In this document: positions 44,533-51,279 of the stretch, one piece after another
Numbering within the stretch: the stretch's first letter is position 1
Layout of the letters: each line of letters starts with the position of its first letter
NCBI GenBank assembly: GCA_938040325.1
Contig: CALHXW010000018.1
Location: forward strand, 1,540-65,539
Direction of reading: 5' to 3'
From: an uncultured bacterium
GTDB lineage: Bacteria > Myxococcota_A > UBA9042 > PHBI01
DNA length: 64,000 nucleotides
Program-made: the position numbers and the translations under genes
The notes under the pieces: generated by a model
The model's input: the letters and a program-made list of their open reading frames with translations, nothing else
Database searches by the model: none
Told to the model about the DNA's origin: nothing

Positions 44533-47277
44533 ATGATGCACCATCCCTTGAGTTTGGCCGACGTGACACGGGGCCTCACTGGCGAGCATGTCCGGGACGC
44601 GGCAGTTGCTGTCGAACAGTCACGGCGGCTGTCGCCCGAACAAGAAGCAAGCTGGCTCGCGGCCGAACACCAGTGGGCCGTCGCAAGTATCGCCACCACA
44701 CCTCTTGCCTGGCGTGTGGCGAGGCTCGCGTGGCGAGACGGCCGGGTGGCGCATGAGCGGCTAGAGCGCCCTGAGCTGGCGGTTCCGTCGAGCTGGATCC
44801 ACCCGGAGCTCGATGGATCGCGCTACACGTCTCATGCCATGACCGCGATCGGTGCAGGACCGAGCGTCTGGCCCTTTCGATTCGATGGCGTTACCGGCGT
44901 GTTCAGCGCTGGCGACGCGTTTGGTTGGTGGAGCCACGGACTCGTGCACGCGCTTATCGGCGGTGCCTGGTGGCCAGGCATGACCGAGTGGGAGCTGATG
45001 CACGTCTCCCGTCTGAGCGAAGCTGTTGCAGCGCTGCACTGGTACTGGCTCGCTGAGATCGGGCGGCAGCATGACGATGCGCCGGAGTTCGACCTCACGC
45101 GGCCGAACCCTGACGCGGACGCAGCCTATGCTGACCTCGAGAGCCGTGCTCGCAACCCGATCTCGCGTCTCAAGAACCTACGCTCCGACAGGTCGGTTCG
45201 CATCGGACAGAACGCGCTCGAGATCATGAACTACGAAGCGTTTGCGTATCGACGCGGAATGTTCGCCGGCGAGATGGTCGAGCCCAAAGGCCGCTACCTC
45301 AACCTTGGTGAAGCCTGTGAGTACGCGCGCTTTCACCTGCGACGCCTTAGCTCATCGGCTGCCAGTCGTTGGCGAGACACCTGCATGAACGGCGACTTCG
45401 CCACGAGCGCAAGCGAGTTCGAGTCGCGCGCAGCCAGCGTGCTCGCCGCGATCTTATCGCCAGCGGAGTTAGAGCTATCCGAGAGCCCTCCCCACGGCCT
45501 CCGTGTCCTGCAGGACCTCGGGTGGCGGCTGGCCCACGCGAGCGAGCTTGACGTCGACAAACAGGCGATCGAGCGCTCGCTCCAGGCCTGTGGCGACGCG
45601 TGTGTAGCGGTACGCGACGGAAGCAACGCAGATGACGCAATCCGGGCGCTGATGGGCGCGCTGGTCGTGGACGCACCCAGCATCGGCGCTGACATTGTGA
45701 AGCTCGGCTATCGTCCGTTGAGAGATGGGGTCGACCCAAGCAGGGAACCGCGCACAGACGCCTTGATTGCGCGGAGCTGGAGAACGCACCGTGTCGTCGG
45801 CACCGCTTGCGAGGGCGTCCGTGCCGCCGCTGCGCTCGCAGTGGACGCCCCACGCAACGCAAGTGTCATCGAGGACTTGATCCCCGCCGCCGAGGTTGCC
45901 GCCGCAGCTGGCGCGATCGCCTATCTCGACGAAGCCTACCTCGGCTGGCTGGCGGTGGCGCAGCAGTTCTGGGGGCCGTTTTCAGCGAGTCCCGAGCAGG
46001 GCAACCGCTACCGCTATCGACTTGCGCGGCGCGAGCTGCCGCCGCAGGACGAGTGGTCACGCTATGAGGTGCAGATCAACCCTTACGTCGACAGGCAGCC
46101 CATGCCATTCGACGCACGTTGGAATGCCGACCTCCTCGAGAGGCCAGCCGGTGCGGTGGGCGCGTACGAAGCGAAAGCGGCGACGGCGGTCTGGCACTGT
46201 CTGCTCGGCAGCAGCCCCGAGGGGCCGCTGTACATTCCGCTGACCCCCACGATGCTATCGGTCGTGTCGAAGCTCCGAAGCCCGATGCGACTCGGTGACC
46301 TTGCCGACGAGGCCGGTTCGAACCTCGCAGCCCTGAACGCAGCGGTCGCTAGCAGGGCTGTGCTGCTCTTCGACAAGCCGGTCGGCCCGACGCGTTCGCG
46401 CCAGCCTGCGATCTCAGGACCGTTTGGGTTCGAGATGGAGGCTGTTATCGAGCCCGTAGGACCATGGAGCGACCAAGAGCAAGTCGACGCCTACCTCAAC
46501 TTCCAGGCGCGCAGCACCCTCTACACCGAGAGCTCTGGCGCCCTCGTTGCGCATGCGCAGGTGGAGCACGTCAGGCGCGTCGCTGACCTCGCCGCGGGGA
46601 CGGGCACGACCACAAGAGCACTGCTGTCGGTCGTCGGGCCGGCGGCTGAAGTCGTAGCCGTGGAGCCATCCATCAAGATGGCGGAGCACCACAGCAACCT
46701 CGTGGGGGACTCGCGGGTCGAGCTCGTCAAGGGCGGCCTGCGAGCGCTCTTCGGCCAGGTCGCGTGGGGCGGCCCCTTCGACGCGGTCGTGTGCAACTCC
46801 GGGCTCTGGCTGTGTGGCCCTCTGCCCACGACTCTCGGTTGGTTGCGTTACAGCCTCGGGCCGCGTGGCACGCTGGGCTTCAACATCCCGCTTGAGTATC
46901 TCGGCGAACACCAGATGCTTGGCGACGGCGTTGGCGTAGAGGTTGCGTCCGCTCTTCACGCGATTCAGTCCGAGCGGTTCGGCGCGCCTGTGACCCGAGA
47001 CACGACCAGCGACCTGGGGCTCGGGTCGCGGCAAACGGTCAACGACGCGCTCCGTGATGCCGGGTTCGAAGAGGTCGAGTGGAAGAACTGGTCGTACGAT
47101 TGGACCGTCGGTGACTACCTCGCCTGGCTCAGTATGCCTGCTGTTGTGGTGTCGCTAGCGCCCGCGGACACCCCAGAGCAAGCCGTCGCTGTGCTTGACG
47201 AGCTTCAACGCCGCGTTGACCTGAACGCACCCCTGACGTGGACTTGGGCGATGGTTCGCGCGCGGACGCCCGCTTAG
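44533..47277 (+). CDS. Large protein (914 aa) with C-terminal class-I SAM-dependent methyltransferase domain and unknown ~650-aa N-terminal region
   Basis: Motif I VADLAAGTGTTTRALL, and a post-I acidic residue (VVAVEPS) and motif-IV-like DAVVCNSGLW in the last ~250 aa. Nothing recognisable in the N-terminal region. First gene of a same-strand cluster. Confidence 0.6.
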   Translation: MMHHPLSLADVTRGLTGEHVRDAAVAVEQSRRLSPEQEASWLAAEHQWAVASIATTPLAWRVARLAWRDGRVAHERLERPELAVPSSWIHPELDGSRYTSHAMTAIGAGPSVWPFRFDGVTGVFSAGDAFGWWSHGLVHALIGGAWWPGMTEWELMHVSRLSEAVAALHWYWLAEIGRQHDDAPEFDLTRPNPDADAAYADLESRARNPISRLKNLRSDRSVRIGQNALEIMNYEAFAYRRGMFAGEMVEPKGRYLNLGEACEYARFHLRRLSSSAASRWRDTCMNGDFATSASEFESRAASVLAAILSPAELELSESPPHGLRVLQDLGWRLAHASELDVDKQAIERSLQACGDACVAVRDGSNADDAIRALMGALVVDAPSIGADIVKLGYRPLRDGVDPSREPRTDALIARSWRTHRVVGTACEGVRAAAALAVDAPRNASVIEDLIPAAEVAAAAGAIAYLDEAYLGWLAVAQQFWGPFSASPEQGNRYRYRLARRELPPQDEWSRYEVQINPYVDRQPMPFDARWNADLLERPAGAVGAYEAKAATAVWHCLLGSSPEGPLYIPLTPTMLSVVSKLRSPMRLGDLADEAGSNLAALNAAVASRAVLLFDKPVGPTRSRQPAISGPFGFEMEAVIEPVGPWSDQEQVDAYLNFQARSTLYTESSGALVAHAQVEHVRRVADLAAGTGTTTRALLSVVGPAAEVVAVEPSIKMAEHHSNLVGDSRVELVKGGLRALFGQVAWGGPFDAVVCNSGLWLCGPLPTTLGWLRYSLGPRGTLGFNIPLEYLGEHQMLGDGVGVEVASALHAIQSERFGAPVTRDTTSDLGLGSRQTVNDALRDAGFEEVEWKNWSYDWTVGDYLAWLSMPAVVVSLAPADTPEQAVAVLDELQRRVDLNAPLTWTWAMVRARTPA

Positions 47278-47380
47278 CGGAGCCGTCCGCTCTCGCGCGG
47301 AGTGACGCGGCGGCGTTGGCTCCAAAGCGTGTCGCTGTATGCGGCGTTCCGGAACGGCTCATTCGTGTATAGTCCCCGGC

Positions 47381-47935
47381 ATGATTATTGGACTCACAGG
47401 CAAGTATGCCGCAGGGAAAGGGACCGTCGCTGCCATGCTGGTGGAGGATGGCTTCACCTACCACTCTCTCTCAGACATCCTGCGCGAAGAACTCGCCGCT
47501 CGCGGCGTGGCGGAGAGCCGCGAGTCGCTGACCGCCATCGGCAACGAGCTGCGCACCGCAGGTGGTCCGGGAGTATTGGCCGAGCGGCTCGTTGAGCGGC
47601 TGAGCGATGGGCAGCGACATGTCGTTGACTCCATCCGCAACCCTGCAGAGGTCGTGGCTCTGCGGGCAGCGTCAGGCTTCTTCTTAATCGGCGTGGATGC
47701 GGACCCTCGGGTCCGCTTTCAGCGCCTTGTCGAGCGTGCCCGTATCGGGGACCCCACCGACTTTGAGACCTTCCAGCGCCTGGAAGCGGCGGAGACCGAG
47801 AGCGACGACCCGAACAAGCAGCAGCTCGCTCGAACGTTCGCGTTGGCTGATGAGGTCGTCGACAACGGCGGCACGGTCGTCGAGCTCGCGGACGCTCTCG
47901 GAGCGGTGCTCCGCCGCAGACACGCGTCGCCTTGA
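47381..47935 (+). CDS. NMP-kinase-like P-loop protein (adenylate/dNMP-kinase fold)
   Basis: MIIGLTGKYAAGKGTVAAML P-loop with the NMP-kinase GKGT signature. Arg-rich LID-like segment (RVRFQRLVERARIGD). Its TGA stop overlaps the TTG start of the next gene (TTGA). Confidence 0.65.
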   Translation: MIIGLTGKYAAGKGTVAAMLVEDGFTYHSLSDILREELAARGVAESRESLTAIGNELRTAGGPGVLAERLVERLSDGQRHVVDSIRNPAEVVALRAASGFFLIGVDADPRVRFQRLVERARIGDPTDFETFQRLEAAETESDDPNKQQLARTFALADEVVDNGGTVVELADALGAVLRRRHASP

Positions 47936-50543: not shown

Positions 50544-50580
50544 GTTGGCAAGTCTTCCCATCCCAGTTGCCCAGCCTCGC

Positions 50581-51279
50581 GTGGTTCGCGATGAGGTTGC
50601 GTGGGAGCTCGTCCGCGATGAGTGGGACTTGCTGCTTACGATCGGCACCGGCCCGACGCCACTGGCCGCTCTCATTGAGGCGCTTGGCGATGAGGATGGC
50701 TCGATCCAAGGGAGGGTCCAGGTGCTGGTCCGCTATGGGCTCGTGCGCGCGACACCTGCCGGCTTTGAGCTCGTCCAGGCCTTCTACGAGCGCCGCGAAG
50801 GGATGAGCACCTACCTGCGGGACCTTGTCCTGCGGCGGGTTGCGGAAGGCAACGTCGTCCCCACCTCCGGGCGGGTGCGTTTTGACGTTGGCGGCCGGGC
50901 AGACATCGCCTCGCTCGTACAAGACGCTCACCAGAAGCTCTTTCCAGAGGTCGTCGACCTTGCCAGTCAGCCGGAGAGCGCCTCAAGCGAGCGCTTCAGT
51001 GTCTTCTTCGTGGCGTCGCCCGACGCTGGCGAGCCGAAGACGCGCGAGCTGATTCCGTCCTTCTTGGACGTGCTGGGGTGCGCTGCGTCAGAGCGCACCC
51101 GAGACCCCGGTGGAGACGCAGCGTGCCTGTGGATCGCTGAGATGAAGACAGACCCGAGGGTAGCCGACGCGATCGGTGACCTTCTCGACAAATTTTTGAC
51201 GGATGCGCCGGCCAAACATGGCCCGGCGGCCGCCGGATTCGCGATCGTGCCTACCGGCCGATCCGCTCGCCTCTCGTGA
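50581..51279 (+). CDS. Putative winged-helix (MarR/PadR-like) domain protein
   Basis: GTG start just after the upstream stop. wHTH-like segment (WDLLLTIGTGPTPLAALIEAL..GSIQGRVQVLVRYGLVRATPAGFELV). The track ORF from 50389 overlaps the previous gene and is trimmed. Confidence 0.4.
   Translation: MVRDEVAWELVRDEWDLLLTIGTGPTPLAALIEALGDEDGSIQGRVQVLVRYGLVRATPAGFELVQAFYERREGMSTYLRDLVLRRVAEGNVVPTSGRVRFDVGGRADIASLVQDAHQKLFPEVVDLASQPESASSERFSVFFVASPDAGEPKTRELIPSFLDVLGCAASERTRDPGGDAACLWIAEMKTDPRVADAIGDLLDKFLTDAPAKHGPAAAGFAIVPTGRSARLS

Follow-up and report, generated by a model that had tools for sequence, protein, structure and literature searches.

The window considered here is a 64,000-nt stretch of DNA from an uncultured bacterium of the Myxococcota_A (contig CALHXW010000018.1 of assembly GCA_938040325.1, positions 1,540 to 65,539 of the forward strand), and the subject is a cluster of five plus-strand genes at 44533-51279 together with a divergent gene to its left, P290, which is the constant partner of the cluster in other genomes. 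(Positions below are those of the window; related loci elsewhere are cited by L numbers, and one as the P0008 locus.) The five open reading frames (ORFs) had been picked out in an earlier note, made from the sequence alone, and are indeed where that note placed them, with two starts shifted. The first (44533-47277, +) encodes a 914-residue fusion of an uncharacterised N-terminal domain (N-domain) to a C-terminal class I S-adenosylmethionine (SAM)-dependent methyltransferase. The second (47381-47935, +) encodes a 184-residue P-loop protein of the nucleoside monophosphate (NMP) kinase fold and UPF0200/AdkA-like type, here called the kinase. The third (47932-49347, +, TTG start) encodes a 471-residue, apparently PGM1-like ATP-grasp ligase, which is an optional member of the cluster. 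The fourth (49440-50543, +) encodes a degenerate AAA+ protein (367 residues) of the bacterial enhancer-binding protein (bEBP) type, and the fifth (50545-51279, +) a 244-residue protein whose N-terminus probably forms an ArsR-like winged helix (wHTH). The kinase ORF opens at 47339 (198 aa); its homologues begin at Met15 of this ORF, which makes 47381 the likely start. The wHTH ORF opens at 50389, and 50545, 1 nt past the AAA+ stop codon, is its likely start because homologues measure 244-263 aa, matching a protein of 244 aa.

The order methyltransferase fusion-kinase-AAA+-wHTH recurs in at least seven further loci. The arrangement is beyond chance, since these are independent metagenome-assembled genomes in which the proteins are 35-70% identical. 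The stop codon of the kinase gene overlaps the start of the ATP-grasp gene (TTGA), as had been pointed out, and this 4-nt overlap recurs in four loci (L001, L009, L169 and L170). Judged by sequence, the five genes are a conserved operon in a few uncultured Myxococcota. The full set, including a gene for an acidic protein of ~180 residues that follows the wHTH gene, is found in the window, L001/L002, L009 and L170, all of which also carry the divergent P290 gene and, upstream, genes for a DUF2169 protein, a conserved protein designated c26 and a Ser/Thr kinase-TPR protein. The set without the ATP-grasp gene is found in L003, L015, L018/L019 and the P0008 locus. Thus, the tight same-strand cluster with co-occurring homologues stands, and what has to be revised is its description as a five-gene unit: the ATP-grasp gene is missing from four syntenic loci, a sixth gene is present in five, and P290 was left out. 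That the module exists, how it is built and how far it extends are on solid ground.

P290 (43512-44378, minus strand) encodes a 288-residue protein and is the anchor of the neighbourhood. It adjoins, or lies no more than ~2.2 kb from, every N-domain relative examined (one gene away in L006). A gene for a P290 protein of 282-294 aa is the neighbour of the N-domain homologue in every neighbourhood fetched, and P290 is present in all 17 non-redundant N-domain loci, 8 of which were reached by searching with the N-domain protein and not with P290. The two genes are divergent in loci with the methyltransferase fusion and usually co-directional in loci with the N-domain only. The window P290 is 52-59% identical to its counterparts beside N-domain homologues; for the 914-residue protein the figure is 30-38%.

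The P290 family is large, comprising 1,387 clusters in a collection of 5.8 billion proteins (the best 120 at 49-65% identity), with relatives in 295 stretches of species-representative genomes. The 80 of these 295 that were retained all come from metagenome-assembled genomes, most of them labelled as lineages of Myxococcota type (Myxococcales, Polyangia, Haliangiales, Kofleriaceae, Bradymonadales). The window protein has no match in Pfam, NCBIfam or the PDB sequences, and thus none to PAAR (PF05488) or DUF4150 (PF13665), and none in phage and plasmid collections or the viral structure library BFVD. Its structure model is confident and largely helical, and finds no fold match. Conservation runs the whole length of the protein and the invariant positions are chiefly Pro and Gly, in segments such as VPGLPWYPAFAAFPGPMAPPMPNIPxPLI and GKGPIPTFAPPYVPVGPVVxGDN (with the Pro-aromatic motifs PIPTF, PPYVP and LPWYP); Cys118 and His285 are among the near-invariant residues. 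With invariant positions of this kind, P290 looks more like a structural or client protein than like an enzyme.

The composition of P290 is also unusual. The window protein contains 8.7% Lys and 0.3% Arg. Over 120 members of the family (P0022-P0141) the means are 8.6% Lys and 0.6% Arg, with a maximum of 1.7% Arg, in GC-rich genomes whose neighbouring proteins hold 8-10% Arg. This avoidance of arginine is family-wide, and no explanation for it was found. (The earlier note had spoken of Lys-rich ORFs near the cluster; P290 is the sole nearby gene with a strong excess of Lys over Arg, and was probably among those meant.) GC content at third codon positions is 0.85, the highest in this part of the window, equalling or exceeding that of the SucC and Ndk genes; read as a mark of high expression, this would make P290 probably an abundant protein.

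The N-domain ("N650"; residues 1-616, 44533-46380, +) is mostly helical (mean pLDDT of the AF2 model, 84) and is separated by a disordered linker (residues 617-639) from the methyltransferase domain (residues 648-914, 46474-47277, +). It has no match in Pfam, peptidase families included, or among the PDB sequences. Searching with the 914-residue protein and with an alignment returned the same 21 proteins, which are fusions of ~910-960 residues or N-domain-only forms of 640-676 residues. When 1.84 billion representatives were searched exhaustively with HMMER, 289 N-domain proteins were recovered, 29 close and ~260 distant. The distant relatives (P0174-P0294; loci L089-L168) are 530-640 residues long and match no Pfam or NCBIfam model. 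In an alignment of 112 of them (full-length, >450 aa), the two His residues of an HExxH motif and a Glu at +24 are kept in 112 of 112 and the Glu of the motif in 111, and most also have a CPxH...CxxC element.

HExxH with a Glu downstream is the signature of gluzincin metallopeptidases. The window clade differs from these in that Gly, Ser or Ala has replaced the catalytic Glu. In the window protein (WWSH-G-LVH...E163), H135, H139 and E163 are kept and Gly is the replacement; among close members the position is occupied by Gly in 29, Ser in 2 and Ala in 1, and by Glu in none scored. On this alignment the N-domain belongs to an offshoot, lacking the Glu (HGxxH), of a zincin-like HExxH...E superfamily that is so far unannotated. 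With Gly, Ser or Ala at the catalytic position the clade is not predicted to act as a peptidase, and the domain is read as a zincin-like fold without peptidase chemistry in which the metal site or groove is apparently retained. The distant relatives are uninformative on function, since no P290 gene and no conserved neighbourhood was found near them in 80 metagenome loci.

The methyltransferase domain has the Rossmann-like fold and the Gly-rich SAM-binding motif I of class I SAM-dependent enzymes. N-domain-only loci have a separate methyltransferase that is 35% identical to the fused domain, together with a B12-radical-SAM enzyme and a protein designated c15. The latter belongs to a second, unrelated HExxH...E family (a common origin of the N-domain and c15 zincin-like families was rejected at an hhalign probability of 0.1).

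The domains of the remaining cluster proteins, as the earlier note had called them, hold up with unequal strength: the kinase and AAA+ proteins are matched, the ATP-grasp and winged-helix proteins weakly so. The kinase, with its P-loop GLTGKYAAGKGT, matches AAA_17/AAA_18 in Pfam, the UPF0200 AdkA-like structures 3lw7/3h0k best in the PDB (4e-11), NCBIfam PRK08356 (1e-17) and, over the kinase-like part, a model for an anti-phage dCTP deaminase (partial, 7.5e-11); the PADLOC dCTPase model scores 1e-21. Nucleoside monophosphate kinases (adenylate kinase, CoaE) were considered and rejected, equivalog scores lying far under cutoff (18 against 284 bits, for example). Homologues are 63-69% identical in L001, L003, L009 and L018, and 57% in L015.

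The ATP-grasp protein appears PGM1-like at a weak level of similarity. It reaches 22.7 bits (1.4e-4) with the Pfam PreAtp-grasp model (cutoff 27.5) and 13.3 bits (E 0.06) with PGM1_C (cutoff 22.5), and a three-sequence profile finds PGM1 (3wvq) at E 7e-5 over residues 344-438, and also 8ynd, an "ATP-grasp peptide ligase". What it has in common with PGM1, the pheganomycin enzyme, is thus PreAtp-grasp/PGM1_C similarity over ~95 residues and the E-x-N-x-R motif (FVECNGRWGG). It differs in context, since the window has no pheganomycin-type precursor or amidinotransferase and a UPF0200-type kinase is the coupled partner of the ligase. With a kinase that is not an adenylate kinase equivalog and a ligase that appears PGM1-like and not RimK-like, the cluster does not resolve into housekeeping pathways. 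Carriers of the ATP-grasp gene are the window, L001/L002, L009, L170 and L169; L003, L015, L018 and the P0008 locus lack it. The P290 operon of L169 takes in the kinase and ATP-grasp genes together, which indicates that the two travel as a unit, on either side of P290.

That operon (L169 628-8838, minus strand) runs P290, PAAR, DUF2169, kinase, ATP-grasp, ABC ATPase, and a fusion of an ABC-2 permease to an Rce1-like (CPBP) domain. Its genes overlap by 4 nt from DUF2169 onward, and it is divergent from a gene for an N-domain-methyltransferase protein, which is followed by c15. The exporter/immunity-like end of the operon has no counterpart in the window.

The AAA+ protein retains Walker A and the 'RxEDV' region in common with bEBPs (NtrC/ZraR/PspF), and has a strongly conserved C-terminus, FMRPTKSVAWAFYNRVFKRD. 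It matches ZraR (1.3e-6) and NtrC1 (~5e-5) in the PDB (range 1e-6 to 1e-4), Sigma54 family models weakly, and RtcR in PADLOC weakly. On the other hand, its Walker B is D-R and not D-E (window, GGTLLLDRF; consensus, GGTLVLDRF), the central stretch from Walker B to sensor I has been shortened (six homologues aligned), and there is no GAFTGA, receiver domain or Fis-type HTH domain. Assignment as a sigma-54 enhancer-binding protein was rejected on the missing GAFTGA, the Walker B and the shortened region, which leaves similarity of the AAA+ core only. The wHTH protein of the window matches nothing in Pfam. Its profile finds ArsR/NmtR-type proteins (NmtR, E 0.008), and homologues give faint HTH_20 and weak MarR_2 matches, so that the winged-helix assignment is a weak one. 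Homologues (244-263 aa) come after the AAA+ gene in L001, L003, L009, L015, L018, L170 and the P0008 locus. The earlier suggestion that the cluster encodes its own pair of regulators is plausible as far as the pair goes, but the AAA+ member is without the loop by which sigma-54 activators are defined.

The sixth gene (51287-51805, +) encodes a 172-residue acidic protein (Asp+Glu 23.8%) with a hydrophobic C-terminal segment and a faint MYXO-CTERM-type match (E 0.07). A gene for a protein of 174-184 aa comes after the wHTH gene in L001, L003, L009, L170 and the P0008 locus, and similarity to these counterparts is weak (BLAST, 32% identity, E 8.5e-6).

A promoter-like block lies upstream of P290 (44464-44522, minus strand) and reads TTGCGG, an 18-nt spacer containing TG, TAGGCT, and then GGGGTAGGCGGTCGCC. 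The block TTGnnn-18 nt with TG-TAnnnT-GGGGTAGGCGGTCGCC is common to the divergent intergenic regions of L001, L009, L010 and L018, and is conserved though the proteins of the flanking genes are only ~58% identical. It may be the P290 promoter together with a possible operator. (A generic promoter scan did not flag it; the terminator and promoter scans of the window as a whole were at chance level, and Rfam families are absent from the window.) A sigma-54 promoter was rejected: a GG-N10-GC match at 44519-44533 (minus strand) is one of 69 in the window, where 67.5 are expected, and is not conserved in the sister loci.

Neighbourhoods were surveyed by calling ORFs in 88 loci, clustering them and rescanning with family HMMs; counts refer to 84 non-redundant P290 loci and to ±7 kb of P290. 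A B12-radical-SAM enzyme is encoded in 22 of the 84, a Trm112-ribbon/OvoA-C-terminal-like methyltransferase (8e-23) in 19, the N-domain in 17, an acidic protein of 162-199 aa (c4) in 17, PAAR in 16, DUF2169 in 15, a Ser/Thr kinase in 13, gp5-OB/VgrG-like proteins in 10, the AAA+ protein in 7, the cluster's kinase, c15 and a double radical SAM protein in 6 each, and the ATP-grasp protein in 3. PAAR, gp5-OB or DUF2169 (identities confirmed by Pfam) is present in 31 of the 84.

Several of these families merit a word of their own. The Trm112-like zinc ribbon fused to an OvoA-C-terminal-like methyltransferase (c5; 4-mercaptohistidine N1-methyltransferase, 8e-23; L044 8565-9587 and 13 further loci) usually directly adjoins P290 and/or PAAR. 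In one P290 clade, the double radical SAM protein (c30; 650 aa; L063 1826-3772, L023, L027, L042, L054, L057) adjoins P290, with its gene immediately downstream in 5 of 6 loci, and supplants the other enzyme sets. A COMMD-like identity for c4, a possibility raised by PMC13392464, was rejected, since Pfam, NCBIfam and PDB profile searches gave no COMM match and coiled-coil matches only.

To the left of P290 in the window lies the DUF2169 gene (40534-42840, +; Pfam DUF2169, 5e-49). Its 768-residue product is much longer than the ~294-position Pfam model, with long acidic insertions that contain Lys (Asp+Glu 24.3%). The long form recurs in L001, L009, L010, L013, L016, L017, L025, L045 and L059. 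DUF2169 genes occur near P290 in four different arrangements. Sachar et al. (2025, PMC11883445) describe DUF2169 as a chaperone of PIPY spike tips, whose Pro/aromatic patches it binds. Clusters of DUF2169, OB-fold, VgrG and PAAR genes have been reported in Myxococcota (PMC13392464). The window protein is a probable chaperone-type partner of P290, and the association of P290 with DUF2169, PAAR and gp5 genes, the patch preference of DUF2169 (PMC11883445) and the Myxococcota clusters (PMC13392464) together suggest that some lineages, at least, have spike-type machinery that handles P290. The DUF2169 gene is preceded by that of c26 (38389-40383, +; 664 aa), which is 36% identical to the product of L001 4608-6314 and is carried by the window, L001, L009, L010, L017 and L170. 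Its homologues have a lipoprotein signal (a lipobox is visible in the L009 sequence); whether c26 belongs to the module is uncertain.

The likeness to DUF2169-PIPY(DUF4150)-VgrG modules of type VI secretion systems (T6SS; PMC11883445) and to the Myxococcota clusters (PMC13392464) is that here, too, DUF2169 is found beside an anchor gene, with PAAR and gp5-OB joining in related loci; the invariant Pro-aromatic motifs of P290 are, moreover, the kind of surface that DUF2169 reportedly binds (PMC11883445). The differences are that VgrG, PAAR and DUF4150 are missing from the scanned genes of the window, that P290 is largely helical, and that no genes for methyltransferases, radical SAM enzymes, ATP-grasp proteins or kinases have been described in PIPY-type modules. 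The window was therefore rejected as a T6SS DUF2169-PIPY-VgrG module, DUF2169 being present and VgrG and DUF4150 not found among the scanned genes. No described system holds the gene combination set out here, as the earlier note had already maintained for the five genes, and the P290 and N-domain families are unannotated.

As to function, we infer that P290 is a protein client tailored by the enzymes encoded next to it, with its own pair of regulators, the five genes constituting the tailoring and regulatory arm of the module; we would give this a probability of about 0.4. It is favoured because the cast of enzymes varies by clade and P290 stays constant. In its favour, too, N-domain-linked P290 proteins occupy three separate places in the P290 tree, and P290 is better conserved than the N-domain (50-64% against 30-40% identity). 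The composition of P290, its chiefly Pro/Gly invariant positions, the spike-type genes near it and the conserved promoter-like block are further points on the same side. The L169 operon, in which kinase and ATP-grasp genes lie inside a P290-PAAR-DUF2169 series, likewise points to a protein client. (The earlier proposal of a nucleotide-like or peptide-like substrate found no specific support.) In the proposed scheme, the 914-residue protein would dock onto P290 through its N-domain. That the domain keeps its metal ligands (H135, H139, E163) and has lost the catalytic Glu argues for a binding module rather than a protease. The fused methyltransferase would then methylate P290, with Lys a candidate target in so Lys-rich a protein, and Cys118, His285 and the N-terminus as alternatives. 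The kinase and the PGM1-like ATP-grasp protein may add an ATP-dependent ligation in the lineages that carry them, and the degenerate AAA+ and wHTH proteins may control the conserved divergent promoter. DUF2169 would shield exposed Pro/aromatic patches of P290 and, in related genomes, pass P290 to a PAAR/gp5-type spike. It is a more doubtful proposition that P290 is the tailored cargo or tip protein of a contractile injection apparatus in Myxococcota and Bradymonadales, modified by lineage-specific enzymes and then chaperoned by DUF2169 onto PAAR/gp5-type spikes.

A comparison can be made with a large protein, the methyl-coenzyme M reductase McrA. It undergoes multi-enzyme post-translational tailoring by the B12-radical-SAM enzyme Mmp10, a class I methyltransferase and others. 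The proposed tailoring of P290 would be alike in having a folded protein as recipient, class I and B12-radical-SAM enzymes encoded nearby, and a modifying set that varies by lineage. P290 is not homologous to McrA, and the enzymes near P290 differ in that zincin-like domains, fused or separate, and an ATP-grasp ligase go with them.

A number of observations weigh against P290 as a tailored client. The closest structures to the methyltransferase domain are small-molecule enzymes (TmtA, OxaG, Tam), and the closest solved relative of the ATP-grasp protein, PGM1, makes a small peptide. No residues were found, at the thresholds used, that are conserved solely in N-domain-linked P290 proteins. About one-quarter of P290 loci have none of the above partners (FtsK-P290-RNase G is an example), in which case P290 either can do without tailoring or has its enzymes encoded at other places. 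Neighbourhood type tracks P290 clade, and co-occurrence may for this reason be partly inherited synteny. With regard to injection, no PAAR, VgrG, DUF4150 or T6SS core gene was found among the 19 window genes scanned, and conservation as high as that of P290 is unusual for an injected effector.

The first two of these points are also what recommends a small-molecule or short-peptide pathway, in which P290 would be scaffold, carrier, target or immunity protein instead of substrate. The NMP-kinase fold of the kinase fits such a pathway, as does the L169 ABC exporter with its Rce1-like domain downstream of the ATP-grasp gene, an arrangement seen in bacteriocin clusters, and sets of B12-radical-SAM, HExxH and methyltransferase proteins resemble clusters for ribosomally synthesised and post-translationally modified peptides (RiPPs). 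We nevertheless consider it unlikely. A precursor-peptide gene, core biosynthetic enzyme or transporter was not found among the cluster genes and their immediate neighbours (small ORFs were not searched systematically), and the ATP-grasp gene is dispensable in the four syntenic loci that lack it. The enzyme repertoire varies by clade with only P290 constant, and P290 is conserved end to end, unlike a leader-core precursor.

Alternatively, P290 might itself be an injected membrane-active effector, or a spike tip of PAAR/VgrG type, with the enzymes serving immunity or regulation or being passengers. The spike-type genes near P290 in 31 of 84 loci are in keeping with this, as are the DUF2169/OB-fold/VgrG/PAAR clusters of Myxococcota (PMC13392464) and the L169 order of P290, PAAR and DUF2169 with, downstream, an ABC-2/Rce1-like protein of a kind that is often responsible for immunity. 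Yet DUF2169 is the sole spike gene found among the scanned genes of the window, where P290 has no adjoining small gene of immunity-like character, and an effector would not typically show identities of 49-65% among its best 120 relatives, nor occur in FtsK/RNase G contexts. It would also go unexplained why P290 is strictly paired with the N-domain family and why methyltransferase and radical SAM genes recur beside it. The low probability that we attach to P290 as effector or tip reflects these points.

That there is no functional system at all, the genes acting independently and standing together because one Myxococcota lineage has inherited their order, seems quite improbable. It is true that neighbourhood type follows P290 phylogeny, that all loci come from one phylum and that the kinase-AAA+-wHTH set is known from only about nine independent loci. 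Inherited synteny fits poorly, however, with an order kept at 35-70% protein identity while the genes outside the block differ, with 4-nt and 1-nt gene junctions, with the relocation of the kinase/ATP-grasp pair into the P290 operon of L169, with a methyltransferase that is fused in some members and separate in others, and with an N-domain/P290 pairing that persists in divergent and co-directional layouts. Anti-phage defence by a methyltransferase, nucleotide kinase, ATPase and DNA-binding partner is very improbable indeed: PADLOC mad2 does match the methyltransferase region (4e-12), as dCTPase and the NCBIfam anti-phage deaminase model match the kinase, but these matches span generic folds only, the N-domain has no PADLOC match, no deaminase, nuclease or restriction partner and no complete PADLOC system was found (P290 being outside the proteins scanned), phage and plasmid collections contain no P290 homologue, and the flanks are of housekeeping type and syntenic between genomes, with no defence island.

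The surroundings bear on a further claim, that the cluster occupies an accessory region of atypical composition, which was not upheld. GC content is 0.60-0.67 throughout the window, the cluster is surrounded by housekeeping (SucD, Ndk, RlmN) and signalling genes, and the left flank (Ser/Thr kinase-TPR protein, the 664-residue protein, DUF2169) is syntenic in other genomes. The pile of miniature inverted-repeat transposable elements (MITEs) that had been noted next to the cluster is real as far as the repeats are concerned. Between the stop codons of the DUF2169 and P290 genes (42850-43515) lie nested inverted and direct repeats that look like stacked MITE-like elements; among them are 30-nt arms that are 90% complementary and direct repeats of 40 nt at a distance of 307 nt. 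Farther to the left (19629-27002, minus strand) is a 2,458-residue ORF with 24.7% Asp+Glu and 0.5% Lys.

What is at stake is, in the first place, two protein families that have been wholly without annotation: P290, with at least 1,387 clusters and 295 species genomes, and the HExxH superfamily, with ~290 representatives at 50% identity. That P290 proteins avoid arginine throughout the family is an unexplained constraint in itself, and a testable one. If P290 is indeed a tailored client, bacteria would have a folded protein with modifying enzymes dedicated to it that vary in kind, and a protease fold would have been reused as the docking domain of a methyltransferase. DUF2169 would gain a possible client beyond its canonical PIPY-VgrG setting, and there would be a handle on the injection-type gene clusters, of unknown cargo, of predatory Myxococcota.

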